A DNA stretch of 64,000 nt from an uncultured Acidimicrobiia bacterium (lineage in GTDB: Bacteria; Actinomycetota; Acidimicrobiia; Spongiisociales; UBA5794). A program made the translations under genes and the position numbers. The notes under the pieces were generated by a model. The model had not been told where the DNA came from. It worked only from the letters and a program-made list of their open reading frames with translations, and made no database searches. The stretch lies in NCBI GenBank assembly GCA_963704825.1, contig CAVPHV010000017.1:102325-166324 (forward strand), written 5' to 3'. This document shows, piece by piece, positions 2,568 through 34,415 of this stretch (position 1 is its first letter; each line of letters opens with the position of its first letter).

Positions 2568-2586
2568 CTGCGGCACTGCTTCGGGC

Positions 2587-3648
2587 ATGCGGACACGTAT
2601 GCTCGGGCGTATGACCGACTGGCCATTTGCCTCACCGATCAAACCCATGAAGGCCCGGGTGAAGGAAACTCCGCCGCAGGGCGAAGGTTGGGTGTACGAG
2701 CCCAAGTGGGATGGCTTTCGCGCCATCGCCTGGGGTGGGGCCGAACCAATGCTGGAGAGCCGCAACGGCAAGCCACTGCTGCGCTACTTCCCCGAGCTGC
2801 TTCCGGCGCTCGAGCAACTTCCGGCCGGGACGGTGATTGACGGCGAGGTCGTGGTGGTGGTCGACGACGTCACCCAATTCGACCAGCTCCAACTTCGGAT
2901 CCATCCGGCCGCCTCGCGGATCGAGAGGCTCTCCGGCGAGATCCCCGCCGAGTTGGTGGCCTTCGATCTGCTTGCCGTTGGTGGAGAAGACCTGCGCGCC
3001 ACGCCGTGGGTCGAACGTCGGGAGCGGCTCGAGGAGCTCTTCGCCGGGCTCGAGCTCCCCTGGCATCTCACGCCGGTGACCAGTGACTTCGCTGAGGCCG
3101 AGCGGTGGTTCTCCGAATACGAGGGCGCCGGCTGCGACGGGATCATCTGCAAGCTCGACGACGGCGCCTACGTCGAGGACAAGCGGGTGTGGATCAAGTG
3201 GAAACACCGGCGCGATTGTGACTGCGTGGTCGGCGGCTACCGGGTCCACAAAGACGGTGACAAGATCGGGTCGATTCTGCTCGGTCTCTTCAACGACGAA
3301 GGCAACTTCCACTTCATGGGCCATTGCTCCGGATTCTCCGACCACGACCGGGTCGAGTTGTTGCGCCAATTCGAGCAGATCCGTTCAGACGAGAGCTTTG
3401 GCGGCGATGACGACGTCAGGGTGCCGGGCGCCCAGAGTCGATGGTCGACCGGCAAGGAACTCGACTGGATCCCGGTCACGCCCGGTGTTGTGGTCCAGAT
3501 CAGCTACGACCAGCTCGAGGGTGGCCGGTTCCGTCATGCCACCCGTTTCGAGCGGTGGCGTCCCGACAAGCCGGCCGACGAATGCACCCTGGACCAGTTG
3601 GAACGACCCGAAGGGGCCGGCTTCGCCGAGGTGGTCGATACCTCGTAA
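2587..3648 (+). CDS. ATP-dependent DNA ligase, stand-alone ligase domain (LigC/LigD-ligase-like)
   Basis: Lysine-adenylation motif EPKWDGFR (KxDG) near the N-terminus. Length and motifs fit nucleotidyltransferase plus OB domains. The true start may be an internal Met (MTDWPF...). Confidence 0.8.
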   Translation: MRTRMLGRMTDWPFASPIKPMKARVKETPPQGEGWVYEPKWDGFRAIAWGGAEPMLESRNGKPLLRYFPELLPALEQLPAGTVIDGEVVVVVDDVTQFDQLQLRIHPAASRIERLSGEIPAELVAFDLLAVGGEDLRATPWVERRERLEELFAGLELPWHLTPVTSDFAEAERWFSEYEGAGCDGIICKLDDGAYVEDKRVWIKWKHRRDCDCVVGGYRVHKDGDKIGSILLGLFNDEGNFHFMGHCSGFSDHDRVELLRQFEQIRSDESFGGDDDVRVPGAQSRWSTGKELDWIPVTPGVVVQISYDQLEGGRFRHATRFERWRPDKPADECTLDQLERPEGAGFAEVVDTS

Positions 3649-11023: not shown

Positions 11024-11776
11024 CTATGGGATGGTGGGGAGAAGTGCCCGAATCCGCTCGAGTACGCCGTCGAGAGTCACCACGGTGAAGCGGAAGGTTG
11101 GCGTCTCCGCCGGTTCGGTGGCCACCACCCAATAGCCGAGGTGTCCGGCGTCGAGCACTCGAAGTTCGGCGTCATGGTGAGAGTGGTCGATCTCGGTCCA
11201 CAGACTCGAAACACACCACGTGCGAAGCCGCGACCGATGGGCGAGCACCAGGCGCTTCGCCCAGTGGGCCTCGACGCCGGCGTCGGCGATGATTGCGGTG
11301 GCCGCGGCCGGATCGGTCATCCAGAGGTCCTCGGCGATCTCGATCGTTTCAACCGGGACGATGACCGAGCCATTGAAGCTGGGGTCGGGACGGGCGACGA
11401 TCTTGGTGAGCTGGGCGAGGTGGAACGGGAGGAGGACGGGTTCGATCGAGAAGAGTGCGAAGGCGTCATGGTCGCTCGGTTGGCCGAGGACGGCCTTTCC
11501 GTTGTGGTGCCAGATGGTTGCGATCTCGGTGTGCTCTTCCGTCACCTCGGTGGACACAACGGTGGTTGGTCCGGTCACGACCGAGAGCAGGTCGGCCGCC
11601 AGCGGGTGCAGGATGCCGCCACGGCTGATTCCGGCCCGCTCCAGCTCGGAGATCGCTCGAGTAATGGTCGGGTCTGCGTCGGTGGCGCCCCCGGTTCGCA
11701 GCAACATCGCCACCGGAACCAGGCGGCGGGGCAAGGTGAGGGCGCGTCGCCCGGCGTCGAGTATCGGCTGGGTCAC
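11024..11776 (-). CDS. Hypothetical cytoplasmic protein, third gene of the LysM/membrane-protein operon divergent from the esx-eccC operon
   Basis: ~250 aa, no TM helices. Probable GTG start at 11776 overlaps the upstream stop (GTGA coupling). EspG-like chaperone role considered but not supportable from sequence alone. Confidence 0.5.
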   Translation of the reverse strand: MTQPILDAGRRALTLPRRLVPVAMLLRTGGATDADPTITRAISELERAGISRGGILHPLAADLLSVVTGPTTVVSTEVTEEHTEIATIWHHNGKAVLGQPSDHDAFALFSIEPVLLPFHLAQLTKIVARPDPSFNGSVIVPVETIEIAEDLWMTDPAAATAIIADAGVEAHWAKRLVLAHRSRLRTWCVSSLWTEIDHSHHDAELRVLDAGHLGYWVVATEPAETPTFRFTVVTLDGVLERIRALLPTIP

Positions 11777-12708
11777 TGAGTGGCAGATCCGTGTGAGGCC
11801 GGAGGGCCGGGGAGGATGTCGGCCACTTCCCATTCGCCCCCGTTGCTGGAGAGCTCCAGTGTGTAGGCCACGACATGGACGATTCCGTTTGGCGTGGTTG
11901 CGTTGACGACGGTGCTCACGTAGGTCCGGCCATCGACAACACCTGTCGCCAGCTCAGACAGGGCAACCGCCTGATAGGGGAACGGCTCGATTGCCCGGAT
12001 GTCGCTGCCTGCGACGGTGTAACGCGACAGACGGTGCGACCCAACGAGCATGGCGTCGAGGAACTCTGCGGTGAACTCGGCCAGCTCGGCGTCGACCTCG
12101 TCTGCGAGGGGCGGGATAGGCGGCGGCGTCGGGGCGGGCGGCCCAGCAACTCGTGCCGGGATCTCGGTCACGATGAGCCGCCCATCGACCTTCATGACTC
12201 CGACTTGGTAGTGCTCGATCCCTGCCGAGACGTATCCGTTCTCGGTACGCTCCATGACCTCGGTGGCCACGGTCACATCCCAGTAGGCGCCGCCGAGCGT
12301 CCGGATCTCGATAGTGGCTGCTCGAGTCACATACCGATCGAGTGGTGACATCGCCGCCATCGTCGCCTGGGGTGCCATGAAGGTCTCAACGGACTGGCCG
12401 TTGGTCCCGCCTCCCGTCAGATAGGTCGCGATGAAGAGTTCGGCGAACCCGTCGACGCCGGAGGGCGGAGCAGGGGGTGCCGACACGGTGGCGCTCTGCG
12501 CTGCTCGGGATGCCCACAGCCCCGCCGCGGCGGCGAGCAGAGCGCCGATGGCGAGCGCGACGATGAGACCCCTGGTAGGTCTGCCCGCACGGTGTCTTGG
12601 GTACGGCGGGGCCGGTTCGATTTCCGCTTCGGTTGAGGGCTGAGTCTCCGCCCCGAAATAGTCCTCGATGTCGGTGACGGGTCTCCCAAAATCGAAGTGC
12701 GTGGTCAT
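11773..12708 (-). CDS. Single-pass membrane protein with a ~35-aa cytoplasmic N-terminus, one TM helix and a ~250-aa extracytoplasmic domain
   Basis: ATG at 12708 with GAGGA SD. It overlaps the LysM gene stop (ATGA). TM segment GLIVALAIGALLAAAAGLWA followed by a Pro-rich stretch and a globular domain. Confidence 0.6.
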   Translation of the reverse strand: MTTHFDFGRPVTDIEDYFGAETQPSTEAEIEPAPPYPRHRAGRPTRGLIVALAIGALLAAAAGLWASRAAQSATVSAPPAPPSGVDGFAELFIATYLTGGGTNGQSVETFMAPQATMAAMSPLDRYVTRAATIEIRTLGGAYWDVTVATEVMERTENGYVSAGIEHYQVGVMKVDGRLIVTEIPARVAGPPAPTPPPIPPLADEVDAELAEFTAEFLDAMLVGSHRLSRYTVAGSDIRAIEPFPYQAVALSELATGVVDGRTYVSTVVNATTPNGIVHVVAYTLELSSNGGEWEVADILPGPPASHGSATQ

Positions 12709-13487
12709 GGCTGTTCCTCGGCAACGGCGGGCAACACAACGATCTCGCCGGGATAGATGAGGTCGGGGTCGCTCGAGCGGATGACGTCTTGGTTGGCGAC
12801 GACAACGCGGTGCCAGTACTCGCCGACATCGGGCAGTTGGGCCCCCGAGGCCGCGAAGGTACCGAGGTGTTGTTCGGCAATAGTCCACAGGTTGTCGCCG
12901 GGGGCCACGGTCCACTGCGCCGGCTCGGTGATCACCATGGAGGTGGGCGCCGCAGTTGCCGGGCTGGGCACTCCTGCTGGGGTGGGGGTCCATCCGACTC
13001 GGGTGGCTCCCTGTGGCAAGGTCTCGGCCGGCTCGGGGTCTTCGCTGCCGACAAACGGCGGAATGGGGAGGCCGTCCTCGCCGATTCCTACGACGATCGG
13101 AGAGGGTCCGTCGGTGGCGATGGCGGACATGGCCGGTCCGGCGACGGTCGCGGCGACGATGGTCAGTGCCGCCGTGCCGTCAACGACCCTGCGCACCGCC
13201 GGGAGCGTTGCCCACTCGATCGCCCGTGCCGCGCCCGGAATCCTGGCCAACCGGGCCAGGGCGTAGAGCGCCGTTGAGATCGCAAGCCAGTAGGCAAGAG
13301 CCAGCGCGACGATCCGGAGTAGTGCCGGCAGCGACTCGTCGGCGGGAGTCTGCTGGAGCCAGTTTCCCAGCTGACGCCATGGAATCTGGAGCCACTCAAC
13401 CTCTCCGATGGCGTGTAGGGCCACGAGCGCGCCGGCCTCGAAGACGATCAGCGTGGCCGCCCGGACCCCTCTCGATTCTCGTTCCAT
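12705..13487 (-). CDS. Membrane-anchored LysM domain (peptidoglycan-binding) protein
   Basis: 2-3 N-terminal TM helices, a Pro-rich linker and a C-terminal LysM (WTVAPGDNLWTIAEQHLG...IYPGEIVVLP). Start ATG at 13487 (MERESRG); an upstream alternative TTG start exists at 13523. Confidence 0.65.
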   Translation of the reverse strand: MERESRGVRAATLIVFEAGALVALHAIGEVEWLQIPWRQLGNWLQQTPADESLPALLRIVALALAYWLAISTALYALARLARIPGAARAIEWATLPAVRRVVDGTAALTIVAATVAGPAMSAIATDGPSPIVVGIGEDGLPIPPFVGSEDPEPAETLPQGATRVGWTPTPAGVPSPATAAPTSMVITEPAQWTVAPGDNLWTIAEQHLGTFAASGAQLPDVGEYWHRVVVANQDVIRSSDPDLIYPGEIVVLPAVAEEQP

Positions 13488-13489
13488 TG

Positions 13490-13580
13490 AGTCATCATAT
13501 GCATTGCTAAATGTGTTTGTCAATAGTCAACAATCGTTATACTATATTGACAATTGTTAAATACCTTACATAATCTTCAA
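13490..13580. promoter_or_regulatory. AT-rich (~30% GC) divergent promoter island between the LysM operon and the WXG100-EccC operon
   Basis: Plus-strand promoter: -35 TTGACA at 13547-13552, 17-nt spacer, -10 CATAAT/ATAATC at ~13569-13575. Minus-strand promoter: -35 TTGACA (complement of 13516-13521), 17-nt spacer, -10 ATATGA (13493-13498) for a near-leaderless LysM gene. Near-palindromes TTGTCAATAGTCAACAA and TTGACAATTGTTAA overlap the -35 boxes. Confidence 0.55.
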
Positions 13581-13643
13581 CTATGACCAAGTCGACCGGC
13601 CCTGCGGTCGGTCGACTCGAGCAAGGAAGGAAGGACCAGCACA

Positions 13644-13916
13644 ATGGCGAATATGTTTGGGGCGGATCTGTCGGATCTCGCGGCCCTGCGGGGGACGTTT
13701 GAGACAAAGGCGGGCGAGGTCCAGGCGCTGACCGGAGAACTGTCGGCAAAGGTGGACCCGGCCGCAACGGCGTGGCAGGGGCCGGGCGCCGACAACTTCC
13801 GGGCGGCATGGAACGGCGACTTCAAGCCGGCACTCACCAAGCTCGAGACGGCCCTCGAGGAAGCCGCAGTTGCCGTCGGCAAGTACCGCGAGAACATCGA
13901 GGCGGCTACCCGGTAA
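13644..13916 (+). CDS. WXG100 family type VII secretion target (EsxA/EsxB-like), 90 aa
   Basis: Helical hairpin with central WQGPGADNF (WxG) motif. Size ~90 aa. SD GGAAGGAAGGA upstream. Confidence 0.85.
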   Translation: MANMFGADLSDLAALRGTFETKAGEVQALTGELSAKVDPAATAWQGPGADNFRAAWNGDFKPALTKLETALEEAAVAVGKYRENIEAATR

Positions 13917-13946
13917 CCCTGAGTCTCGAGATCGGGAGGGGAAACC

Positions 13947-14309
13947 GTGACCCCGCACCAGCTCCGGCAATTGGCCGACCGCAATCGGGCGGAGGCGGAC
14001 GCACTGACGGCGTCCGCCGCCCGACTGCGGACGACTGCCGAGTCGTTCCGCGATCTGCTGGAGGGGATTCCCGACCAATCCCGCCGGGTCTGGCAGGGAC
14101 CGGCCGCGACCGACTTCGAGGACAAGGCGCAGGCCGCAGACCGTGATCTCCGCCAACAGGCTCAGGTTCTGTTGAGCACCGCGAGCGACTTCGATCGGGA
14201 GGCGGCAGATCTCAGGGCAGCGGCCCGCGGGCTCGAGGTGCGAGCTGCTGCTGAGGAGGCGGCGACCGTTCCGGGTGAATCGGGTCCGCCTCCAACCGGC
14301 GTGTGGTGA
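13947..14309 (+). CDS. WXG100 family protein, 120 aa, second Esx-like gene
   Basis: Central WQGPAATDFE (WxG) motif. Paired with the upstream WXG100 gene and immediately followed by eccC. Confidence 0.8.
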   Translation: MTPHQLRQLADRNRAEADALTASAARLRTTAESFRDLLEGIPDQSRRVWQGPAATDFEDKAQAADRDLRQQAQVLLSTASDFDREAADLRAAARGLEVRAAAEEAATVPGESGPPPTGVW

Positions 14310-17300
14310 GTGATGCAGATCGTTGTGCACCGCGCCGGAGCCGAGTTCGAGGTGGTACTCGCCGTCGGCGACGAATCGGCCTCACTCGGCGAGATCGTGG
14401 CCGGGTGGTTCGAGGATGCCCCGGCGGCATTTGTCATCGACGGTGTGGTGCGATCGGGAGATACTCCCCTCGCAGCAAGTGGTCTGAGATCTGGATCAGT
14501 GCTCATTCCGCTGGCAGCAGCAGGCCCTATCCCCGAACTGACGGAGGGTGGGCTGGGCGCGGTCGGGCGGCCGTCCTCCTCCTCTCGCATTCCCTTCAAC
14601 CGCCCGCCGCGGCCAGAGTATCCGGTGTCGCTGCCGGCCATCGAGGTGCCGGCCGCACCGCCGGTGGCCAAAGCCTCGACCCGTTTTGGCTGGGGAGCGC
14701 TGGTCGTTCCGCTGATACTCGGACTGGTCATGGCGGTGTTCTTTCACCCCCGGATGGCGCTGTTCGCTCTCTTCAGCCCGGCCATGATGCTGGCCAACTG
14801 GATGGAAGACCGCAGGCGCAGCCGGCGCGAGCGCAGGAGCAGCCAAGCCGACCTCGATCGCAGTCTCGCCGGATTCGGGGACCGGCTCGACGACCTCGCC
14901 ACCGCCGCCGCCCGACTCAAACGCCGCGAGGTGCCGCATCCCGATGGGCTGATTGCATCTCTTGTCGCCGGGAGTCTGCGGATGTGGGAGCGTCGGGTCC
15001 ATCACCCCGACGCCATGGTGCTCGGAATTGGCAGCGGCGACGTCGCGTGGAGCCCGGCCCTGATCACCCCACCTGGGGGCGCCGCGGAGGAGGCGCTGGC
15101 ATTGCTGGCGACGCGCCGCGAGTTGCGCGGGGTTCCGGTCGAAGTCGAGTTGCGGCCCGGTGAGGTGACGGGACTGGTCGGCGATCGCCGCCGCGCCCTT
15201 GGCATGGCACGCTCGCTCCTGATTCAGGCTGCGATCCTCCACGGTCCGGCTGATCTCGAGCTCACGGTGGTCACCGACGCTCCGGATGTGTGGGATTGGA
15301 TCAAGTGGCTGCCTCACGCCGACCTCGACCCGGTGGCTGGGCTGCGCCGGCTCGGAGCCGACCGTGAGGACGTCGGCCCGGTCGTTACCGCCCTGTTGGA
15401 GTCGATTGAGCGGGATCCCGGAGGCAGCGGGCCGATGCGATTGCTCGTCGCCGATGTTGTGGATGTTGCCGCCGAAAGGTGGCAGCGGGTGCGAGAGGGG
15501 CTGAGCGCCGCGGCTCGGGGCAAGGCCGCCGCCATCGCGATTGCCCGCTCGATGAGCGAGTTGCCGTCGGTGTGTACTTCGATTGTTGCGGTTGGTGCCG
15601 GCGGGCCAGCACAGCTGCGGGCTCCCGCAGAGAATCGAAACGTCGGCGGGATTGCGCCGTGGGTCGTTGCTGCGGCGACGGCGCGCCGTGCGGCACGGGC
15701 GCTCGCCGGGTTTCGGGATCCCGATGTTGTCGCCGGTGCAGCAGAGCTTCCCCACCAGGTTCGTCTGCCTGATCTTCTTGGAATCTCCGATCCAACGCCG
15801 GACGCCATCCTGCGCCGCTGGCAGGCCGCAGGCGCCGCCCCGCGCCCGGCGGCCCCCATCGGCATGACCGCCGACGGTCCGCTTCTTGTCGACTTTGTGT
15901 CGGATGGACCCCACGCTCTGTTGGCCGGGACCACCGGCGCCGGTAAGTCCGAGCTGCTGCGCACGTTGGTCGCCTCCCTGGCGGCAACGAACGACCCCGA
16001 CCACCTCACCTTCGTGCTGATCGACTACAAGGGAGGGAGCGCCTTCGACGTCTGCGCCGACCTGCCCCACACCGTTGGTCTGGTAACGGATCTCGATGGG
16101 CACCTGGCGTCGCGGGCGCTCACCTGCCTGGAAGCCGAACTGCGCTACCGCGAGCAGCGTTTGCGCGCTGCGGGGGCATCTGATCTTGCCGCGTACTTGG
16201 CGGGTGGCGAGCCGGAGCCGCTGCCCCGGCTGCTGGTTGTCATCGACGAGTTCGCTGCCCTGGCCAAGGAACTGCCGGCGTTCATGGCGTCCCTCGTCGA
16301 CATCGCCCAGCGCGGCCGCAGCCTTGGGGTGCACCTCTTGCTCGCCACCCAACGGCCCGGGGGTGTGATCAGCGACAGCATCCGCGCCAACACCAACCTG
16401 CGGATGGCGCTGCGAGTCCAGGATGGGTCCGACTCGACCGACGTCCTGGGCATCCCGGACGCGGCAACGATTGGTCGGATGCAGCCGGGCCGTGGCCTGG
16501 TGCGGCGCGGACCCGGTGATGTGGTGCCGTTCCAGACGGCGCTGGTCACTACACCAAGGGGCGATGGCGCGGCAACCGCAGCTGCGGTGCGGCCGTTTGT
16601 CTTCGGCTACGAGCAGCCTGCGGCGGCAGGCACCGACCGCACCGAAACCGGTCCGACCGACCTGGGGGCGCTGGTCGACGCGGTGACTGGGGCGACCGCC
16701 ACCCTCGGGCTCGAGCCACCGCGTCGACCGTGGCCGGACCCGCTCGAAACCAACGTGGCCGCCAAGCTTCTCGACGCGACCCCGCCCGATCAGGTGCGCG
16801 GCGCGCGGATCGCGGTGCCGCTCGGGCTCGCCGACGAGCCCACCCACCAGCGGCAGCGGACCGCGTGGTGGTCAAGTGAGGATGGCAATCTGCTCCTGTA
16901 CGGCGTGCCTGGTTCGGGAACGACGACTGCTCTGGCGACCATCGCGCTTGGGGTGGCGGGACGCCACTCGCCGGACGATGTGCACGTGTACGTCATGGAC
17001 TTCGACGACCAGCGCTTGGCCCCATTGGCCGGTCTCCCCCACGTCGGGGCGGTGGTCGGGGCAGGGGAGCGAGAGCGTCAGCTGCGCCTCCTGCGGTTTC
17101 TCCAGGCCGAGGTGGAGGAGCGCCGGGTGGCGGTGGCGGCCGATCCGGCAGTCCTCGGGGAATTGCCCGCCCTGCTGGTGCTGGTGGACAATTACGCCGG
17201 TCTGGCGGCGGCCTTCGACGAGCCGGCCGACATGGCGGTGCGGACCATTCTCCCCCGGGTCGCGGCTGATGGCCCCGGCGTCGCCATCCATGTCGTGGCC

Positions 17301-18221
17301 ACGGCAAAACAGCCCATCGACATACCCGCCCAGCTGGGTTCTCTGGTCCCCGCCAAGCTGGCCTTTCGCCTCACCGATCGCTACGAGTACGGCGGGCTCG
17401 GCATCCCCATCGAAGAGGTGCCAAGGATCCCGGGACGCGCTCACCAATCGGGGACGGGGCAGGAGATCCAGATCGCTCGAGCCCATCCCGGTGGTGTCGC
17501 CGCGGCCGTAGACGCGCATGCCGACCAGGCAGTGGCGCGGCCACCGCATCGCATCGAGGTACTCCCCACCGAAGTCAAGGTGCCCGACATCGTCGATGCG
17601 GCGCGCGTCTTCGACCTCGAGTGGTCCCTGCCGATCGGGATCGGAGATCACGACCTCAGCCCGGTGGGGTTCGTGCTCGGCGAGGGAGATCACGTTGTGG
17701 TCGCCGGGCCGCCACGGTCGGGCAAGTCGACGGCGCTGATGACCATGGCTGCGATCGTGGCGAGCCACCGGCCCGACGTGATCATCACCGCGGTGGCTCT
17801 GCGGCGCTCTCCATTGCGAGACTGCCCGCAGGTGACGCGGCTCGTCACGGATCCTGAGCAGCTCGAGGATGCCCTTGGTTCGGTGCCCAACGGCGATGGG
17901 TCGCCCCATCTCGTGCTGGTCGATGACGCCGGGATGGTCGACGACGAGGGCGGCTGGCTATCCGCAATGGTCGCTTGCCGTCGGCCCGGGGTGCATCTGG
18001 TGGCGGCCGACCAGGCGGACACGCTGCGGGCCGCCTACGGGCATTGGACCAAGGATGTGCGACGTTCCCGTCTCGGACTCGCCCTCAAGCCGAACGCAGG
18101 CTCCGACGGGGATCTATGGCTAACGCCACTGCCGCGTCGAGGTCCGCCTCACTTCCCTCCCGGGCGGGGCTACCTGTTGGCGGATGGCCGCTGTGAGCTG
18201 GTGCAGACGGCATGGCAGTGA
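14310..18221 (+). CDS. eccC: EccC-like type VII secretion FtsK/SpoIIIE family ATPase with three P-loop NTPase domains
   Basis: 1303 aa. N-terminal soluble domain then two TM helices (~aa 125-165). Three Walker A sites: LLAGTTGAGKSE, LLLYGVPGSGTTT (degenerate) and VVVAGPPRSGKST. Start directly abuts the second WXG100 gene. Confidence 0.9.
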   Translation: MMQIVVHRAGAEFEVVLAVGDESASLGEIVAGWFEDAPAAFVIDGVVRSGDTPLAASGLRSGSVLIPLAAAGPIPELTEGGLGAVGRPSSSSRIPFNRPPRPEYPVSLPAIEVPAAPPVAKASTRFGWGALVVPLILGLVMAVFFHPRMALFALFSPAMMLANWMEDRRRSRRERRSSQADLDRSLAGFGDRLDDLATAAARLKRREVPHPDGLIASLVAGSLRMWERRVHHPDAMVLGIGSGDVAWSPALITPPGGAAEEALALLATRRELRGVPVEVELRPGEVTGLVGDRRRALGMARSLLIQAAILHGPADLELTVVTDAPDVWDWIKWLPHADLDPVAGLRRLGADREDVGPVVTALLESIERDPGGSGPMRLLVADVVDVAAERWQRVREGLSAAARGKAAAIAIARSMSELPSVCTSIVAVGAGGPAQLRAPAENRNVGGIAPWVVAAATARRAARALAGFRDPDVVAGAAELPHQVRLPDLLGISDPTPDAILRRWQAAGAAPRPAAPIGMTADGPLLVDFVSDGPHALLAGTTGAGKSELLRTLVASLAATNDPDHLTFVLIDYKGGSAFDVCADLPHTVGLVTDLDGHLASRALTCLEAELRYREQRLRAAGASDLAAYLAGGEPEPLPRLLVVIDEFAALAKELPAFMASLVDIAQRGRSLGVHLLLATQRPGGVISDSIRANTNLRMALRVQDGSDSTDVLGIPDAATIGRMQPGRGLVRRGPGDVVPFQTALVTTPRGDGAATAAAVRPFVFGYEQPAAAGTDRTETGPTDLGALVDAVTGATATLGLEPPRRPWPDPLETNVAAKLLDATPPDQVRGARIAVPLGLADEPTHQRQRTAWWSSEDGNLLLYGVPGSGTTTALATIALGVAGRHSPDDVHVYVMDFDDQRLAPLAGLPHVGAVVGAGERERQLRLLRFLQAEVEERRVAVAADPAVLGELPALLVLVDNYAGLAAAFDEPADMAVRTILPRVAADGPGVAIHVVATAKQPIDIPAQLGSLVPAKLAFRLTDRYEYGGLGIPIEEVPRIPGRAHQSGTGQEIQIARAHPGGVAAAVDAHADQAVARPPHRIEVLPTEVKVPDIVDAARVFDLEWSLPIGIGDHDLSPVGFVLGEGDHVVVAGPPRSGKSTALMTMAAIVASHRPDVIITAVALRRSPLRDCPQVTRLVTDPEQLEDALGSVPNGDGSPHLVLVDDAGMVDDEGGWLSAMVACRRPGVHLVAADQADTLRAAYGHWTKDVRRSRLGLALKPNAGSDGDLWLTPLPRRGPPHFPPGRGYLLADGRCELVQTAWQ

Positions 18222-19753
18222 GCGGCTTTCGCGGGATTGATCCCGACGGGCTCGTTGGGTTGAGCCGGATGATGGAGGGCACTGCGGCTGAGGTGCTCGC
18301 CGCAGGCAACCTGGGCTACGCGGTGCTCGTCCGCCGCGACCGGGAGTCCGCCGGCGACCGCTTCGGGATGGCGATGAGTCGCCTCGCCCGGCAACTCGAC
18401 GACGAGGCGGCGGAAATGAGCTGGCGGGCTGAGGCAATTCGACGGGGTCAGCTGATGACCTCCTCGTCGATGCCCTCGATGGTGGTTGCCGAACTCCTCT
18501 GGGAAGAGGCTGAGTTCGCCGCGGCCGCCAGGTTCACCGTCGGCGACCGTCAGGTGAGCTTCGAACAGTGGCGCCAACGCCCGCCGGTCCGCGCCCTGAG
18601 GAAGATGCGGCCGGACCAGGTGTCGGCGGCCTTGGCGGCCATGTCTCTCGCGGCAGTCGATCGCCTCCTGCTCGAAGAGCCAACCCTGGTGGGGGGGTTG
18701 GACGGAGCCCCCGCTTGGCTGCGGTGTACCGCAAACGACATGCTGATCGGGCGGGAGGTGAATCGGCTCGCCGGACTTGCCGCCGAGATCGCGGATGAGA
18801 TCAACCAGTTGGAGGATCTCGAGTGGTCGGGCCGCACCACGCAGCAGCGTCTGGTGCGCGAGGTGTACCTCGACGAACTCGAGCGGATCGAGGCGCGCAT
18901 CGCCATGTTCGGTCGGTGGTTGGCCGAGGATCGCCAGATCCTGCTGTTCGACCCTCGAGGTGACGGCCGAGTCGCTGAGGTGTTCGGAGACCTCGACCAA
19001 GCTGGTTTTGTCGCCGTGGTGGTGCCGGGGATCACCAACGACATCGACAACTTCGGTCCGATCGACGGTGGGGGGTTTCGAGCCAACGCCGGACAGCTCT
19101 ACGAGGAGGCGGCGAGGCTCGAGCCCGACGTGGCCACAATCGCCTGGCTGGGCTACGACACGCCCGATGGCGCCGATGCGGCGCTAGCCGGTGCCGCTGA
19201 GGACGGTCACCGCCACCTCGTTGCCTTCACCAAGGGTCTTGCCGCAGCGACTCCCGAACCGCACCTCACCGTCATCGGTCACAGCTACGGTTCGCTGGTC
19301 ACCGGGATGGCGGCGGGTGCCGGCATGGCGGTTGACGATGTTGTGTTCGTCGGAAGCCCCGGAACCAGCCTCGACCGGGCAAGCGAGGCGATCATCGACA
19401 GGGGGGGACGGGTGTGGGCGGGCTTGGCGCACAAGGACCCGATCGGGGCGGGCATCGATCCCCTTCCCGACTCGGCATGGGAGTTCATGCTCGGCCCAAT
19501 CGGCTCGTACGTATGGGACAGCTTTGGGACCGGTGACTACGCGACGGAGGACCTGTGGCATGGCCGCAACCCCGTTCACGAGTCGTTCGACGCCATCGAG
19601 TTCACTACCGATGGCGCCGCGGGTCATTCGCAGTACTTCGCCGCCGGCACCGAATCGTTGGCCAACCTGGCGCGCATCATCGCCGGTCTCGACTTCGCCG
19701 TCCGCTTGGTCGGTGGCGGCGAACTAGCAGCCGACTCAGTCGAAGACGATTGA
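18212..19753 (+). CDS. DUF1023-type alpha/beta hydrolase with N-terminal helical domain; candidate T7SS-associated substrate/effector
   Basis: 513 aa. GHSYGS nucleophile elbow and downstream Asp/His-containing segments in the C-terminal half. N-terminal ~250 aa helical. Start overlaps the eccC stop by 10 nt. Confidence 0.7.
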   Translation: MAVSGFRGIDPDGLVGLSRMMEGTAAEVLAAGNLGYAVLVRRDRESAGDRFGMAMSRLARQLDDEAAEMSWRAEAIRRGQLMTSSSMPSMVVAELLWEEAEFAAAARFTVGDRQVSFEQWRQRPPVRALRKMRPDQVSAALAAMSLAAVDRLLLEEPTLVGGLDGAPAWLRCTANDMLIGREVNRLAGLAAEIADEINQLEDLEWSGRTTQQRLVREVYLDELERIEARIAMFGRWLAEDRQILLFDPRGDGRVAEVFGDLDQAGFVAVVVPGITNDIDNFGPIDGGGFRANAGQLYEEAARLEPDVATIAWLGYDTPDGADAALAGAAEDGHRHLVAFTKGLAAATPEPHLTVIGHSYGSLVTGMAAGAGMAVDDVVFVGSPGTSLDRASEAIIDRGGRVWAGLAHKDPIGAGIDPLPDSAWEFMLGPIGSYVWDSFGTGDYATEDLWHGRNPVHESFDAIEFTTDGAAGHSQYFAAGTESLANLARIIAGLDFAVRLVGGGELAADSVEDD

Positions 19754-20401
19754 TTCGAGCATGGCTTCTCCCTCGGCAATCCGTTGCACGTTCAGATCGC
19801 CCTCATAGAGGAACGCGGCATATAGGGTGCCCGTTGCTGCCTCGATCAGGACAAAGCGGCTGACCGAAACCGTGCCGTCGTCATGGGAGATGGTGCGCTC
19901 CACGATATGGGCCGGAGCGCCGTCGATCGTCGCTTCCTCAGCCACGGTGACCTCGCTGGTGCCGGGGGTGGGGAAGAAGAACTCAGCGAAGAGGTCGGCA
20001 TTGGCGTCGGCGATCTCGGCTGGAGTTCCTGCGTCGGCGAAGTCGAGGTCTTCGGAGGCGAAGCCGATGAAGAGGACGCCGCCGGGCCCCTCCTCGGTGT
20101 CGATCAAGGCGGCAACACGCCCGTAGGTGATGCCGTCCTGGCGCACCACCCAGTCGCGTGGCACCGTGATCGAGATCCCGAGCGGCTCCACGGCAACCGG
20201 GTCGAGCGGGGCAGGCGCCGCGGCGCTCGACGTTGTCGGCGCCGCCGATGTCGTCGCACTGGGCGAGGCAGTGGTCGAAGTCGTCGTTGCTGTGGTTGTT
20301 GTGGTGGTGGCCGTGTCGGTTGCGGAGCACGCCGTCGCGGCGAGGACGACGACGGCGAGGGCTGCTGGCAACAACGTCCTACGGATGGGCATGGCCGCCA
20401 T
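19736..20401 (-). CDS. Secreted/lipo-protein with Thr-rich linker
   Basis: Signal peptide with LAATAC lipobox-like motif, poly-Thr linker and a globular C-terminal domain. It overlaps the yibE/F-like gene start, so the two are probably co-transcribed. Confidence 0.6.
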   Translation of the reverse strand: MAAMPIRRTLLPAALAVVVLAATACSATDTATTTTTTATTTSTTASPSATTSAAPTTSSAAAPAPLDPVAVEPLGISITVPRDWVVRQDGITYGRVAALIDTEEGPGGVLFIGFASEDLDFADAGTPAEIADANADLFAEFFFPTPGTSEVTVAEEATIDGAPAHIVERTISHDDGTVSVSRFVLIEAATGTLYAAFLYEGDLNVQRIAEGEAMLESIVFD

Positions 20402-21836
20402 CTTGGCCCGATGCGGTTCTGGCGGCGAGCCATGTGGTGATGGGCACTGCGGCTACAAGGCCGATGCTGCCAACCAGGGTCCTTACGATTTCGACGGCGA
20501 CGACCTCGCTGTTGGCGATCGACCCGAGCGATTGCTGGGCGAGCACAAAAAGGACGAGCAGCGGGAGCGAGGCTCCGGCGTAGGCGAGCAGCAGGGTGTT
20601 GACCGTCGAGGCGATGTGGTCCCGCCCGATCCTCAGGCCGCCGGCGAAGAGGCGGCCCCGGGTGAGAGCCGGGCTGGCCGCCTTCAGCTCCCACACCGCG
20701 GATGCCTGGGTCACGGTGACGTCGTCGATTGCGCCGGCGGCGCCAAGGACGATGCCGGCCAGCAGCAAACCCCGCACGTCGATCGACCCGAACAGTGTGA
20801 GGAACGAGCTCTCTTCGGTGGCGACCCCGGTGAAGTTCGCCAAGGCGACCACCACGGCGGAGAGCAGCGCGGTGAGGATCAGAGCCGACAGCGTACCGAG
20901 CAGGGCGACGGTGGTCATTCGCGAGAAACCATGGGCCAGATAGAGGGCAAGGTAGGCAATCGCAGAGGCACCGACCACGGCGACGAGCACCGGGCTGCGG
21001 CCATCGAGAATGGCAGGCAGCACAAAGAGCAAGAGCACCATCACGCTGGCGATAAGGCCGCCGAGTGCGGCAACTCCACGCAACCGCCCCAGGGCGACGA
21101 CGACCGCGGCAAAGAGCAGGGCCAGGGCGATCAGCAGCGGCCGCCGCTGGAAGTCGGCGAACTGGTAGAGGATGCTGGGGTCGACCGGCGCCACGGCGAG
21201 GATCTCGAGTTCATCGGCTTCATCTTGGAAGAACTCGATGACGGCCATGTCACCCGGCAGCAGCGTCTCGGCGTAGTCGCCGGGGAACAGTTCGTAGTCG
21301 ACATACCGGCCGGCGTCGCCATCGTCGATCAGGAGGGTGAGCGTTCGGCACACCTCCTCAGGATCGAACGAACATGGTACGTCGGTGACGTCGACCACGG
21401 TTGTGCTCGGGGAGAGGTACGACAGCACGACGGTCTGCCCGGCCGCAAAGTCGGGGATGGATCGTCCCTGGGTGTACTCCTGGACGAAGACGTACCCGAC
21501 GTCGGGCCCGCTGCTGAGCTCCATTTCGACCCGTAGGCAGGTCTCTGTTGGCAAGCCGCGGCAGGGGCGCTCCTCGGCGGTGAGCACGGTTGCCTCGTGG
21601 AACTGACTTGGCACGCCCAGGGCCACCAAGCGCTCGGCATCTCGACGCGACTCGCCGGTGGGGCGGAGGGCGATCATGCCCACGATGGTGAGGACGGCGC
21701 CGGCGATCGCGAGATAGGCAAGGACATCGAGGTCGACGCGAGGCCGCTTCTTCGCATCCGACTCTGGGGCGTACGCCATCCAGTCACCCAGGTCGGGATC
21801 GTGGGCGGGATCGTTCGGGACGTCCGGCGTCTCCAT
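20379..21836 (-). CDS. YibE/F family membrane protein
   Basis: N-terminal TM and extracytoplasmic domain, then a C-terminal multi-TM core rich in GxxxG/Ala (ILDGRSPVLVAVVGASAIAYLALYL...) typical of YibE/F. Confidence 0.65.
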   Translation of the reverse strand: METPDVPNDPAHDPDLGDWMAYAPESDAKKRPRVDLDVLAYLAIAGAVLTIVGMIALRPTGESRRDAERLVALGVPSQFHEATVLTAEERPCRGLPTETCLRVEMELSSGPDVGYVFVQEYTQGRSIPDFAAGQTVVLSYLSPSTTVVDVTDVPCSFDPEEVCRTLTLLIDDGDAGRYVDYELFPGDYAETLLPGDMAVIEFFQDEADELEILAVAPVDPSILYQFADFQRRPLLIALALLFAAVVVALGRLRGVAALGGLIASVMVLLLFVLPAILDGRSPVLVAVVGASAIAYLALYLAHGFSRMTTVALLGTLSALILTALLSAVVVALANFTGVATEESSFLTLFGSIDVRGLLLAGIVLGAAGAIDDVTVTQASAVWELKAASPALTRGRLFAGGLRIGRDHIASTVNTLLLAYAGASLPLLVLFVLAQQSLGSIANSEVVAVEIVRTLVGSIGLVAAVPITTWLAARTASGQDGGHAHP

Positions 21837-23739: not shown

Positions 23740-23993
23740 AACGCCACGTACGCCCCGGTTGTGTGGAGCGTGATGTCCGAGGCGTTGTCGAACCCTGTGG
23801 TGCCGGACTGTCGGGTCCACACCGGTTCACCATCCGTAGTGAATCTGCGGACATAGCCGTCCAGACGCCGACGTTGGTCTGGCTGGGCAGCGCCCCTTCA
23901 GTCGTCACACGGTCCTAGGACCCTGGACCGGTGGGTCAGCGCAGCCGCAGAATGCGGAGAGGACCTGCGTGGCGATCTCGTGGAGGATCTGAG

Positions 23994-25271
23994 ATGAACA
24001 CCTCAAGGGTGGCGAAGCTTCTTGTCGCGGTTGCCCTGTTGACTGGATGGATGCTGTTGCCGGGCGGGGCCGAGGCAGCCGGCGGGGACTTCGAGGGTCC
24101 CAATTTCCGTATCAGCGGCAGCTCCGACACTGGGCACGAGTGGTTCCCCTCGGTGGCCTACAACTCGACCGATGACGAGTATCTCGTCGTCGGTCAAGAC
24201 GGCAGCGGACACGTCATCGGGCAGCGGATTGCGCCCGATGGCCGCCGCTTGGGTGAGATGTTCGGTATCAGCGGCAACCGGGCTGTCGGCGTGTCCGTCC
24301 CAGCCGTCGTTCACAATCCCGTTGACAGTGAGTATCTGGTCGTGTGGTGGGACGCCCGGCGCGCCAAGGGTGGCGACGGTGACCCGACAGGCGACATTTT
24401 CGCCCAGCGGATCGCCGCCGATGGCAGTCGAATCGGGTGGAATCTGAGAATCAGCGGGAAGGAGATCACATGGCGCTGGGACCCTGATCTGGTCCACAAT
24501 GTCGTCCGCAACGAGTATCTCGTCGTCTGGGAAAGCTCGCGGGATATCGTCGGTCAACGACTCTCGTCAAGTGGCGAGCGGATTGGCAGGAGGATTCCCA
24601 TCAGCGCTGCCGACAGCGTGCAGGCGGCGTATCCATCGGTTGCCCATGACGCAGCCCACAACAGGTACCTGGTGGTCTGGCAAGACGGCAGGAACCTCGA
24701 CGTGTCCGACTGGGATGTCTATGGCCAGCGGATCGCTGCCAAGGGCAGACTCGTGGATGCCAACTTCCGGATCAGCGGTGCAGCCGCGACCGCGTCGGAT
24801 CAGTATCCGGGTGTCGGGTTCAATACCAACCGCAACCAATACCTGGTCTTTTGGCATGACGAGCGGAGAAATCGACAAGTTGGCGCCGATGTCTACGGGC
24901 AGCGACTTTCGGCCAAGACAGAACGCTTGGGCGGCAACTTCCGGCTCACCAACGACATGACGAAGTCCAATGGCTGTTGCCAGTCGCACAACGTTGCCTA
25001 CAACCCAACAAGCGATCAGTACCTGGCGCTGCTGGCGCCCATCGATCAGGCCGGGCACGTCTACGGGCAAAGGATGCGGGCCAACGGAAAGCGCCTTGGT
25101 GCTGCCTTCCGCATCAGCGGCCCAAACGCCGATGTCTTTGGATACGGTTCGAACGCCGTTACCTGCCATCCGCTACGGAACGAGTACGTGGCCGTTTGGG
25201 CCGACGCCAGGAACGTGGACACCCGGGGGATCGACATCTATGGCCGGCGAGTCACCGGGGCGGCCCCGTAG
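23994..25271 (+). CDS. Secreted protein built from ~8 tandem ~45-aa repeats (beta-propeller-like)
   Basis: Signal peptide (MNTSRVAKLLVAVALLTGWMLLPGGAEA). Repeats share the pattern NFRISG...YLVVW.D.R...DIYGQR...G.R.G. SD GGAGG 8 nt upstream of ATG 23994. Confidence 0.65.
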   Translation: MNTSRVAKLLVAVALLTGWMLLPGGAEAAGGDFEGPNFRISGSSDTGHEWFPSVAYNSTDDEYLVVGQDGSGHVIGQRIAPDGRRLGEMFGISGNRAVGVSVPAVVHNPVDSEYLVVWWDARRAKGGDGDPTGDIFAQRIAADGSRIGWNLRISGKEITWRWDPDLVHNVVRNEYLVVWESSRDIVGQRLSSSGERIGRRIPISAADSVQAAYPSVAHDAAHNRYLVVWQDGRNLDVSDWDVYGQRIAAKGRLVDANFRISGAAATASDQYPGVGFNTNRNQYLVFWHDERRNRQVGADVYGQRLSAKTERLGGNFRLTNDMTKSNGCCQSHNVAYNPTSDQYLALLAPIDQAGHVYGQRMRANGKRLGAAFRISGPNADVFGYGSNAVTCHPLRNEYVAVWADARNVDTRGIDIYGRRVTGAAP

Positions 25272-25347
25272 CCAACTCTCTCAAGAGGCGTGTGCCGCTT
25301 TTGCGCAGCACCGGTGACCGCCTCCGGGTCCGGTATCCTGTCGCCGC

Positions 25348-26719
25348 GATGACATCACTGCGCAAGTTCTCCGCCCTGCTCGTTGTTGTGTTCGTTTTCT
25401 CTGCGTCGGTGGCCGCGGCTGTCGCGGTGGAGTCCGGCGAGATCGCCGAGGAGGTATTCACCCAGGGCTTCTACGTCGAGGAGGGTGCGTCCATCACCGA
25501 CGCGGAAGCGAGCGCGATCGTCTCGGCGGCTCGCAACGAAGGCTCGCGCTATCACCTCATCGTGCTCGTGGAGACCCCGCCGGGGGGCAATACGGTCTTT
25601 GCGGAGGCGGTTTACGACTTCATGGGGATCGACTCGGGCACCGTCTTTGTACTCAGCGAGGACGACACCGGATGGGTTTCGGTTGACGAATTCAGCGAAT
25701 CCGAGCTGGAAGACGCCTTCATTCTCGCCAGCGACGCCGGCGGAAGCGACGCCGCCTATGCCGCAAACTTCACCGGTGCTCTCTTCGGGCTCGACCTCAA
25801 CGTGGGCTCCACGGCCGGTGGTTCCGACGACCGTGCGAGTTCCACCACCAGCGCGGGGGGTTCCGCCACTGGGGGTAGTTCCGACGACGGTGGCGGCGGA
25901 GGCGGCTTCCTGTGGTTCATTCTGATCGTTGGCGGTCTGGTCTTGCTCGTGTGGTGGCTGATGCGGCGCAGCAAGGCCCAGGCTGCAAGGGCCGCAGAGA
26001 GCCAGTTCGCCAAGGCGCGTTCCGAGATTCAGGTCCAGCTCGACGGCATCGCCAACGACATTCTCGAGATGGAGAGCGAGGTCCGTGGCGCCGACAACGC
26101 CACGGTTGATGCCTTGTTCGACGAGGCCGGCACCACCTACAACGAGGCCTCGGATGAGCTGGCAGAGGCGGACAGTCCGCAGGAGTTGCTGGACCTCTCC
26201 AACAAGGTCGATCTGGCGGTGTGGCAACTGGACTCGTGCGAGGCGATCCTCGACGGCAAAGAGACGCCGCCGAAGCCTCAGCCGGAGAAGCTCGTGCCGC
26301 CGCCCCAGCCCAAACCGTCCCAGCCCGCGCCCGGCGGTGCGTCGTCGGGTTCATCATTGCCACCGCGGCCCTCCTACCCGCAGTACCAACGGCGTTCGAC
26401 CCGGCGCAGCTCAGGACTCTCCCCGGGGATGCTCGAGATGCTGATCGGGCTGGGGGCCGGAGCCATGATGGGCCGTCGCCGAGGACCGTCGCGCACCGGG
26501 TACTCGAGTAGCGGCGCCCGTTCGAGCGGTGGGGTGATTCCGGGACCGTCCCAGCGGTGGCAGCTCCTCATCGCGGAGGAGCTCATCTGGCCGGTCTCGC
26601 AGCACGGGCCGACGGGTACGCGGTGGTGGCAAACGCAGGCGTTGACAGAGTCTGGGAGGGCTCTTCCGGGACCGCCTAGACTCGACACAGACATCAAGTT
26701 CAGGGAAGGATCGGTATGA
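25348..26719 (+). CDS. Membrane protein with N-terminal extracytoplasmic TPM-like domain, one TM helix and a cytoplasmic coiled-coil/low-complexity tail
   Basis: Signal peptide, then TPM-like segment (TDAEASAIVSAARNEGSRYHLIVLVETPP...FVLSEDD), Gly/Ser-rich linker, TM FLWFILIVGGLVLLVWWL and a helical region. Stop overlaps the pspA start (ATGA). Confidence 0.5.
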
Positions 26720-27438
26720 GTTGGTTCAAGCGAGTTTGGGGCTATTTCGCCACGCTCTTCAAGCGCACTGCTGAGAACGCGATGGACCCTGAGATCGAGA
26801 TCGAGCAGGCGATCAACAACGCCAAGAAGCAGGACCAACAGCTGCGCAATCAGGCTGCCAAGGTCGTTGCCCACCGCACTCAGCTCGAGAGCAAGATGGA
26901 AAAGGCCGCGGATGCGGTTGGCGAGAACCGTGAGATGGCCAAGCAGGCAATCCTGCGCGCCGAGGACGCCAAGTCCAAGGGTGACGTCGAAGGTCAGACC
27001 AAGTGGGTGAAGACCGCCCAGGCATTGGCGATGAAGCTGCAGGCGTCCGAGAACAATCTGAATACGCTGAAGGTCCAGTATGAAACCGCCGCGGTCCAGG
27101 CCGACAAGGCAAAGGCGGCGGTAACCGCGAATGCGATGAAGGTTCAGGAACTGGCCGCCAAGCAGATGGAACTGCTCGGGACGCTGCAGGCCGCCAAGAT
27201 GCAGGAGTCGGTCAACAAGGCCGTCGACACCATGTCCAACACGATGGACTACGACGCGCCGTCGTTGGCGAAGGTCGAGGAGAAGATCGAGAAGCGCCAA
27301 GCGGAAGCCATGGCAAAGGCCGAACTGCGCGACGCCACCCCGGATGGTGCTGAGGCGGAGCTCAAGGAGGCCATCAACATGGTCCAGGCCGACGCCAAGC
27401 TCGAAGAGTTGAAGGCCGAGCTCGGCATCACCGAGTAG
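26716..27438 (+). CDS. pspA: PspA/IM30 (phage shock protein A/Vipp1) family protein
   Basis: 240 aa, entirely coiled-coil. Conserved N-terminal amphipathic helix and IM30 core (MDPEIEIEQAINNAKKQDQQLRNQAAKVVAHRTQLE...). Confidence 0.85.
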   Translation: MSWFKRVWGYFATLFKRTAENAMDPEIEIEQAINNAKKQDQQLRNQAAKVVAHRTQLESKMEKAADAVGENREMAKQAILRAEDAKSKGDVEGQTKWVKTAQALAMKLQASENNLNTLKVQYETAAVQADKAKAAVTANAMKVQELAAKQMELLGTLQAAKMQESVNKAVDTMSNTMDYDAPSLAKVEEKIEKRQAEAMAKAELRDATPDGAEAELKEAINMVQADAKLEELKAELGITE

Positions 27439-34240: not shown

Positions 34241-34415
34241 GGCTCAAGGCTGCTGCGAGTCGTGCTGCTGAGTAGGCTTTTGTGGACCTGTCGCCGACCC
34301 AACAAGAGGGTCTCTGCTGCGGTCTTGGCGACCGTGCTGATTCCGGCTGGCTCGGCGACGGCGCTGCGCCCACAACCGGCGTGATGACCGCGTAAGCATC
34401 GGTAGAGGGGGAGAC

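Follow-up and report, generated by a model that had tools for sequence, protein, structure and literature searches.

A candidate type VII secretion system variant of Acidimicrobiia paired with a TcpC/VirB8-like membrane protein

Can a type VII secretion system (T7SS) be built without the membrane proteins that are encoded beside its ATPase in the described actinobacterial systems? Two T7SS architectures, ESX and Ess/Yuk, are well studied, and eight further subtypes are known from bioinformatics only. The question is raised by seven genes in a 64-kb stretch of DNA (the window; all coordinates are window positions) from an uncultured Acidimicrobiia bacterium, contig CAVPHV010000017.1. The locus is chromosomal, and its host is a monoderm actinobacterium. 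An earlier note, made from the letters of the window, regarded the genes as a compact T7SS-like locus and suggested that they may represent an undescribed minimal subtype, with a peptidoglycan-binding protein and a single-pass protein in place of EccB and EccD. This proposal is the best fit to the results presented here, because the ATPase is clearly of the EccC/EssC type and the gene set is conserved across divergent Acidimicrobiia and in different neighbourhoods. The locus is probably (with a probability of about 0.7) a self-contained T7SS variant specific to Acidimicrobiia that uses a scaffold of the kind found in type IV secretion systems (T4SSs).

The seven genes form two divergent operons that share one AT-rich promoter region, with translationally coupled genes in each. 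The plus-strand operon encodes two WXG100 proteins (A and B), the EccC/EssC-type ATPase, and an Abhydrolase_8 hydrolase, in that order. The minus-strand operon encodes a LysM protein with three transmembrane (TM) segments, a TcpC/VirB8-like single-pass protein, and an EspG-family protein. A check of open reading frames (ORFs) found all seven genes at or very near the positions given in the earlier note. Its account of the plus operon, with two WXG100 genes, a triple P-loop ATPase of EccC type, and a coupled DUF1023 hydrolase, is borne out by profile matches and by a 10-nt overlap of the eccC and hydrolase ORFs. Its account of the minus operon as a coupled series encoding a LysM membrane protein, a single-pass protein, and a cytoplasmic protein agrees with the predicted TM segments and with the overlaps ATGA at 12705-12708, between the LysM and TcpC-like genes, and GTGA at 11773-11776, between the TcpC-like and EspG-like genes.

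The ATPase contains three FtsK_SpoIIIE stretches (PF01580, E = 6e-57) with Walker A motifs at residues 539, 864, and 1132 (positions 15927, 16902, and 17706). An FNRPPR motif is located at residue 95 and two TM helices at approximately residues 125-165. The gene most likely starts at the ATG at 14313 (MQIVV..., as in homologues) and not at the GTG at 14310. In the PDB, the protein matches EccC of T. curvata (4NH0, E = 7e-75), EccC5 (2e-59), and B. subtilis YukB (4.5e-57), whereas the matches to FtsK (1e-16) and to a conjugative coupling protein (5e-14) are far weaker. Because the similarity to EccC and YukB is so much stronger, the ATPase cannot be grouped with the conjugative FtsK/TraB motors, and its assignment to the EccC type in the earlier note is upheld. 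The scores against the curated NCBIfam models are 495 bits for TIGR03928 (EssC; cutoff 778), 398.8 bits for TIGR03924 (EccCa; cutoff 509), and 291 bits for TIGR03925 (EccCb; cutoff 346.6).

Both WXG100 genes withstand profile searches. Protein A matches PF06013 with an E-value of 1.7e-9 and scores 46.9 bits against TIGR03930, above the cutoff of 44.85. It is 100% identical to the proteins of two related loci, L009 and L025, despite synonymous divergence (dS) of 0.32-0.47. Protein B appears to be a weaker WXG100 paralogue: it matches PF06013 with an E-value of 1.7e-3 and TIGR03930 with 4e-5, has a weak PPE match, and aligns to protein A with a probability of 76% in hhalign. The C-terminus of protein B is mostly aromatic (W/F) in homologues whose tail aligns to the end. 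A membrane ATPase of the EccC/EssC type with three P-loops and WXG100 genes adjoining it place the locus within the generic definition of a T7SS, which may export WXG100 proteins in an ATPase-dependent manner. Judged by their component lists, however, it falls outside T7SSa, T7SSb, T7SSd, and conjugative T4SSs, as set out below.

The single-pass protein of the minus operon is a member of the TcpC/VirB8-like family of conjugation-type scaffold proteins. It scores 32.5 bits against PF12642, above the gathering score of 27 bits, and a profile of 12 homologues matches TcpC of the Clostridium perfringens plasmid pCW3 (PDB 3UB1) with an E-value of 4.5e-6 over both domains (chain residues 13-250). 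Like pCW3 TcpC, it has a short cytoplasmic N-terminus (about 45 aa, with a conserved PVxDIEDY motif), one TM segment, and two outer domains that align over the whole of 3UB1. The AlphaFold2 (AF2) model calculated from nine close homologues is of low confidence, with a mean predicted local distance difference test score (pLDDT) of 44; it contains the TM helix followed by two copies of a unit of one helix and four strands, in agreement with two NTF2-like domains. Thus, the single TM segment and the large extracytoplasmic region proposed in the earlier note are retained, and the protein is now assigned to a family. The LysM protein matches PF01476 (E = 2e-3) and NF008399 (E = 1.3e-6), and its predicted TM segments span residues 10-28, 56-74, and 106-124.

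The third product of the minus operon is, according to its predicted structure, an EspG-family chaperone. The window protein has a weak match to PF14011 (E = 6e-4), which is carried by 19 of 25 homologues, and its AF2 model has a pLDDT of 92.9. In a Foldseek comparison of the model with the PDB, the top 18 matches are all EspG1, EspG3, or EspG5, with a probability of 1.0, a TM-score of about 0.64, and E-values down to 2e-12. The sequence profile of the protein yielded no match among PDB sequences, so that the comparison of folds was needed, and no TM segment is predicted. The earlier note had listed the WXG100 proteins, EccC, and the hydrolase as the only canonical T7SS parts; this list has to be extended, as an EspG-family chaperone is a further canonical part of T7SSa. 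The subtypes T7SSa to T7SSj were defined by Garrett, Higginson and Palmer in 2024 (PMC11217815).

The arrangement recurs on dozens of independent contigs and is therefore not due to chance. Pattern scans of genome and metagenome contigs with an alignment of TcpC-like proteins yielded 9 genomic and 42 metagenomic loci, EccC homologues added five further contexts, and the loci were sorted by phmmer into three groups. A word-indexed search with the TcpC-like protein gave 10 close matches; the distant relatives come from the pattern scans. Loci of the first group contain the full set, with hydrolase-EccC-WXG-WXG divergent from LysM-TcpC-EspG, so that comparative genomics bears out the conservation of the seven-gene arrangement. 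The full set is kept in L012, L015, L017, and L018, in which EccC is 47-55% and the TcpC-like protein about 30-37% identical to those of the window. The surroundings of L018 are different, with a type I restriction system next to the locus, and loci of its type (L018 6242-7495; L029, L030, L031) contain an extra conserved 417-aa gene without a Pfam match between the TcpC-like and EspG-like genes. In the second group (L014, L020, L021, L039, L052), the set is reduced to four genes, with TcpC-like divergent from WXG-WXG-EccC among unrelated neighbours. The TcpC-like protein, the two WXG100 proteins, and EccC are thus probably the minimal working core.

The third group comprises 17 metagenomic and genomic loci in which VirB4 and related genes lie beside the TcpC homologue. 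The gene order is TcpC, two small genes, VirB4-like AAA_10, VirB6-like, M23/SLT hydrolase, and VirD4-type coupling protein. The full T4SS part set is present in L011, L013, and L016; in L013, for example, the VirB4-like AAA_10 ATPase, the M23/SLT hydrolase, and the VirD4-type coupling protein were identified. By their gene content, these loci are true conjugative T4SSs of the Gram-positive type. They raise the possibility that the minus operon of the window is a remnant or module of a conjugative T4SS, or part of an integrated element, which lies beside an independent minimal WXG100/EccC module without any joint function. The family of the TcpC-like protein is otherwise conjugative: in a plasmid collection, 75 of 75 matches, among them proteins of Streptomyces and Rhodococcus, bear the annotation 'conjugal transfer protein', and the single plasmid context inspected shows the gene order of the T4SS loci. 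Moreover, in the T4SS locus L037 (7901-12823, with VirB4-like AAA_10), the gene directly upstream of TcpC encodes a homologue that matches the LysM protein over its full length (34% identity, E = 7e-29), whereas the other 23 loci with the LysM gene are of the T7SS type. The LysM-TcpC pair is therefore a module common to both types of machine.

Several observations argue against such a chance neighbourhood, which we regard as quite unlikely. The TcpC-like gene outside T4SS loci is paired with WXG100/EccC, in the same divergent orientation, in 23 of the 23 loci with enough upstream sequence, four-gene loci and differing neighbourhoods included; seven further loci of this kind end at a contig edge and are outside the count. 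The TcpC-like gene is translationally coupled to the gene for EspG, a T7SS-specific protein. The T4SS-linked TcpC proteins group in one clade of a neighbour-joining tree, to which the T7SS-linked ones do not belong. The GC content of the window is 62-70%, uniform, and without a compositional break around the locus. Purifying selection acts on each of the seven genes, with dN/dS values of 0.0-0.35 relative to L009 and L025. Finally, Pfam scans of ORFs of at least 200 aa in the window detected no VirB4, coupling protein, relaxase, or integrase, and the T4SS set of VirB4-type ATPase, coupling protein, VirB6-like channel, peptidoglycan hydrolase, and relaxase is also missing from the T7SS-type loci. 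The TcpC-like protein of the locus thus differs from the TcpC and VirB8 proteins of T4SSs in lacking VirB4, VirB6, coupling protein, and relaxase partners, in its pairing with WXG100/EccC, and in its separate branch.

If the locus is a T7SS, are its usual membrane components encoded elsewhere? The T7SSa loci described so far have eccB, eccD, and mycP in a cluster with eccC (PMC11217815). Among the approximately 30 additional ORFs of 200 aa or more that the Pfam scans covered in the window, there were housekeeping families only and no EccB (PF05108), EccD/YukD, EccE (PF11203), or Peptidase_S8/mycosin; for ORFs of this size, the absence claimed in the earlier note holds. In L017, L018, L020, and L021, which lie on contigs of 2.2-4.2 Mb, precomputed annotation contains no EccB, EccD, EccE, or MycP within about 10 kb. 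The locus nevertheless shares much with T7SSa of the ESX-4-like kind: an EccC with two TM helices, a DUF-like region, and three P-loops, a non-identical WXG100 pair directly upstream of eccC, an EspG chaperone, a putative ubiquitin-like module, and membership of the same phylum.

These likenesses would be explained if the locus were an ordinary ESX-4-like T7SSa with EccB, EccD, and MycP encoded at another site, and with the LysM and TcpC-like genes as accessories or mere neighbours. T7SSa is the actinobacterial norm, the EspG homologue and the WXG100 pair are T7SSa traits, and the evidence covers 64 kb of the genome and the flanks of about 10 kb in the relatives. We nevertheless consider this explanation unlikely. 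No eccB, eccD, or mycP is found within 10-45 kb in five contexts (the window and the four annotated relatives), the ATPase scores below the EccCa and EccCb cutoffs, its nearest relatives outside Acidimicrobiia are kinase-partnered, FHA-bearing EssC-like proteins, and EccC itself appears to contain a ubiquitin-like module, which a genuine lack of EccD would predict. EccB and EccD are probably absent from the rest of the genome as well. In contrast to T7SSa, the putative ubiquitin-like domain belongs to EccC and not to EccD, the membrane partners of EccC are the TcpC/VirB8-like and LysM proteins, and no EccB, EccD, EccE, or mycosin was found.

The putative ubiquitin-like module is located in residues 1-70 of EccC (14313-14522), which are conserved throughout the clade. 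A profile of 22 EccC N-termini matches ISG15 (E = 1.4e-4), ubiquitin, SAMP2, the ubiquitin-like domain of a CTD phosphatase, and Ufm1. Individual N-termini of the clade match YukD (E = 5e-3, a single member), ubiquitin, SAMP2, Rad60-SLD, and ThiS in Pfam, whereas the window sequence alone has no Pfam match, FHA included. A phmmer search with a 76-aa query against 1.8 billion representatives gave two matches. The N-terminus of EccC is probably a beta-grasp domain fused to the ATPase, an assignment that is supported but not proven. In T7SSa, the ubiquitin-like module forms the N-terminus of EccD, whereas T7SSb has it as a separate protein, YukD/EsaB (PMC11217815); its supply in cis on EccC fits a system that is truly without EccD. 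In some relatives, eccC is read as two ORFs (544 + 766 aa in L001 and L006; 4488-8400 in L008), and several genes are fragmented in the long-read-style contig L002; these breaks look like assembly frameshifts and not like real pseudogenes.

Longer relatives of EccC contain a recognisable or weak FHA domain between the N-terminal domain and the TM helices. The distant relatives, which are 42-47% identical, are FHA-bearing proteins of Iamia, Solirubrobacteraceae, and Actinoplanes. In Solirubrobacter soli (L019, AUIK01000008.1, 8312-14173), an EssC-like ATPase with the conserved putative ubiquitin-like N-terminus followed by FHA is encoded divergently from a 556-aa membrane Ser/Thr kinase; WXG100 and RHS genes lie close by, and TcpC is absent. 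This is a T7SSc/d-like layout, and the proximity of the EccC clade to FHA-bearing EssC-like proteins, one of them kinase-partnered, is a feature that the locus has in common with T7SSc and T7SSd. If the ATPases of T7SSd share an N-terminal domain of the L019 type, the missing free ubiquitin-like protein of T7SSd would be explained (PMC11217815).

With a conserved ATPase and WXG100 proteins accompanied by lineage-specific partners, the locus resembles T7SSc to T7SSj, which retain the TsxC ATPase and the TsxA WXG100 protein, and EspG-like chaperones occur in T7SSc and T7SSh (PMC11217815). T7SSd of Olsenella and Bifidobacterium, the sole other actinobacterial variant, is likewise compact. The five-component T7SSd includes FHA-bearing TsdC, the membrane Ser/Thr kinase TsdD, TsdH, and the large Ig-like TsdI, and is without a ubiquitin-like protein (PMC11217815). 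By contrast, the two operons of the window contain no Pkinase, FHA, or large Ig-repeat membrane protein, and no phosphatase or protein like TsdH or TsdI; the window EccC is without FHA, its putative ubiquitin-like module is fused to the ATPase and neither free nor absent, and a kinase partner is found only in the distant L019. T7SSb, in which an EssC with two N-terminal FHA domains is joined by EssA, the EssB pseudokinase, EsaA, and free EsaB, is set apart by the EssC score of 495 against 778 bits, by the lack of FHA in the N-terminus of the window ATPase, and by the absence of a kinase-like or EsaA-like gene from the window. In the descriptions of T7SSa to T7SSj, none has a TcpC/VirB8-like or LysM component, and LysM, TcpC, VirB8, NTF2, and Acidimicrobiia are nowhere mentioned in the text (PMC11217815). 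A search of the accessible literature revealed no T7SS subtype beyond T7SSj, no link of a T7SS to Acidimicrobiia or DUF1023, and a link of VirB8/TcpC to WXG100/EssC in mycobacterial plasmids only. The combination of a T7SS without its usual membrane parts and a TcpC-like protein is therefore absent from the published subtypes.

The mycobacterial plasmids suggest yet another role, in which the locus would encode a hybrid machine for DNA transfer or cell-cell contact and not for dedicated protein secretion, in the manner of those plasmids or of distributive conjugal transfer, which needs ESX functions. Mycobacterial conjugative plasmids are reported to encode VirB4, VirD4, and a TcpC-like VirB8 together with a T7SS and to depend on the two systems for conjugation (Ummels 2014, cited in PMC13037476; PMC4173767). 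As in these pRAW-type plasmids, an actinobacterial genetic unit unites a TcpC-like VirB8 homologue with a T7SS; however, the plasmids carry complete EccB-E and MycP together with VirB4, VirD4, and a relaxase and mediate conjugation, whereas the locus is chromosomal, its TcpC-like protein is the sole T4SS part, and the T7SSa membrane parts are missing from it. Transfer of DNA is very improbable, since genes for VirB4, VirD4, a relaxase, or an oriT-type function were not found, the locus lies among housekeeping genes (surE, proC, putA, LigD), EccC is far nearer to EccC/EssC than to DNA translocases, and hallmarks of protein export dominate, namely WXG100 proteins, EspG, and a hydrolase without a signal peptide.

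The hydrolase matches PF06259 in residues 247-411 (E = 1.5e-38), and the motifs GHSYGS, DPI, and GHSxYF are kept in 10 of 10 homologues, which corresponds to an intact Ser-Asp-His set. A sequence scan found no signal peptide, TM segment, or other hydrophobic segment. The N-terminal domain of about 250 aa is conserved among homologues and has no significant match in Pfam or the PDB, with only helical-bundle noise in the latter. It was not called a WXG100, LXG, or PE-PPE domain; hhalign gave probabilities of 4-10% against both WXG100 families. The earlier note had listed the DUF1023 hydrolase among the canonical T7SS parts, which it is not. It is more likely a substrate, and secretion is probable in view of the place of its gene in the locus, of the missing signal peptide, and of the presence of EspG.

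How could such a set of proteins work? It is possible that hexamers of EccC form both the membrane translocon and the motor, with the ubiquitin-like module supplied in cis. The TcpC-like protein may oligomerise outside the membrane, as TcpC/VirB8 scaffolds do in T4SSs, and provide an extracytoplasmic scaffold or conduit that would take the role of EccB, EccD, and MycP of T7SSa or of EssB and EsaA of T7SSb. The LysM protein would tether the assembly to peptidoglycan, so that the LysM and TcpC-like proteins together could functionally replace EccB and EccD. In the cytoplasm, EspG may keep the helical targeting domain of the hydrolase, WXG100-B, or both in a secretion-competent state. The WXG100 heterodimer would be co-exported, with the aromatic C-terminal tail of WXG100-B as the signal for docking on the last ATPase domain of EccC, by analogy with EsxB/CFP-10. 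The hydrolase would be the main cargo. The anchoring by LysM may be compared with the T7SSb of S. aureus, which is reported to recruit the dedicated cell-wall hydrolase EssH (PMC13059805). On balance, we lean slightly towards a chimera of type VII and type IV parts, in which a VirB8/TcpC-like scaffold, often with a LysM anchor, would have replaced every lineage-specific membrane partner of EccC, the ubiquitin-like regulator would be fused to the motor, and a working T7SS would be built from as few as four genes.

Several points weigh against a self-contained secretion system. The ATPase scores below all three curated NCBIfam cutoffs. The ubiquitin-like assignment depends on modest E-values (1.4e-4 against the PDB and 5e-3 against YukD for one member), and the double NTF2-like fold of the TcpC-like protein is derived from sequence profiles, with a model of pLDDT 44. 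The N-terminal domain of the hydrolase has no significant similarity to WXG100, LXG, or PE/PPE, the hydrolase is a putative substrate, and in L026 EspG and LysM are present without a hydrolase beside EccC. EccB, EccD, and MycP might be encoded in trans, beyond the 64-kb window and the flanks of about 10 kb in four relatives. Secretion, interaction, and expression are all deduced from sequence.

If the interpretation is correct, the locus represents a new actinobacterial subtype of T7SS whose one constant membrane partner belongs to a family otherwise found in conjugative T4SSs. The EccC motor would be modular and able to work with very different envelope scaffolds. The locus would also be direct evidence that T4SSs and T7SSs share parts, and the same idea has recently been raised for TraF and EssB/YukC (PMC13037476). 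With four genes, the reduced version would be the simplest of the candidate T7SSs and an attractive target for reconstitution and for structural work on a channel formed by EccC alone. For the abundant uncultured Acidimicrobiia, the locus opens a first way into the study of protein secretion and provides a candidate effector of the lipase/esterase type that may be secreted.

The intergenic region contains two predicted back-to-back promoters, which are the only sigma-70-type sites with 11 of 12 matching positions in 9.6 kb: TTGACA-18-TATGAT at 13523-13494 on the minus strand and TTGACA-16-CATAAT at 13547-13574 on the plus strand. On the minus strand, 6 nt separate the -10 hexamer from the ATG of the LysM gene, which suggests that the transcript of this gene is probably leaderless. 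The WXG100-A gene is preceded by a strong ribosome-binding site (RBS), AAGGAAGGAAGGA. Eight related contigs have kept the promoter hexamers and this RBS. Between the predicted promoter and the RBS, the 5' untranslated region of the WXG100-A gene contains an inverted repeat, GTCGACCG...CGGTCGAC, at 13591-13616; related contigs have largely retained the repeat, which could act as an operator or form a regulatory hairpin.

Table 1 Features of the locus (window positions).
Feature	Position	Strand	Description
EspG-family cytoplasmic chaperone (predicted)	11024..11776	-	250 aa; GTG start overlapping upstream stop
TcpC/VirB8-like bitopic protein	11773..12708	-	311 aa; one TM (residues 48-66); two predicted extracytoplasmic NTF2-like domains
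LysM membrane protein	12705..13487	-	260 aa; 3 TM, Pro-rich linker, C-terminal LysM domain
AT-rich divergent promoter region	13488..13643	.	156 bp; two predicted promoters, inverted repeat, RBS
WXG100 protein A	13644..13916	+	90 aa; WQGPGA motif; conserved C-terminal YRxNIEAATR
WXG100-like protein B	13947..14309	+	120 aa; WQGPAA motif; Ala/Glu-rich tail ending PTGVW
EccC/EssC-type ATPase	14313..18221	+	1302 aa; putative ubiquitin-like domain, 2 TM, DUF-like region, three FtsK-type P-loop domains
Abhydrolase_8 (DUF1023) serine hydrolase	18212..19753	+	513 aa; ~250-aa predicted helical N-terminal domain

Genes identical or nearly identical to those of the window are present on 19 metagenomic contigs and in one metagenome-assembled genome from NCBI, and the closest relatives are uncultured Acidimicrobiia/Acidimicrobiaceae. 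The locus is flanked by housekeeping genes, with LigD/DNA ligase, HSP20, and surE on the left and YibE/F, proC, and proline dehydrogenase (putA) on the right. The YibE/F gene (20379-21836) encodes the nearest polytopic protein, as proposed previously. It is overlapped by a lipoprotein gene (19736-20401) that travels with YibE/F; a weak match of the lipoprotein to TIGR03931 (Rv3446c; E = 2e-4) was rejected as low-complexity, and L018-type loci lack the gene. The left edge of the window cuts through an ORF (3-2567) whose product comprises 854 aa or more, with some 15 or more hydrophobic segments and no Pfam match. This ORF runs into the beginning of an ATP-dependent DNA ligase gene (2551-3648), which lies beside the LigD primase-polymerase gene. 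The ORF was rejected as a hidden EccD on account of the lack of a Pfam match, the at least 15 TM segments, the coupling to the DNA ligase gene, and the distance of 8.5 kb.

Three further observations concern the right part of the window. A 446-aa protein encoded at 23931-25271 has one N-terminal hydrophobic segment and about nine propeller-like repeats of the 'N.YLVVW' type, without a Pfam match. At 24860-27438, a gene for an Rv1476-like membrane protein is followed by a PspA/IM30 gene, adjoining proC and proline dehydrogenase, and this order is kept in L017. A DUF2252 gene is split over the overlapping ORFs 34341-35222 and 35125-35832, which cover profile positions 1-191 and 192-392, and is either a frameshift pseudogene or the product of an assembly error.

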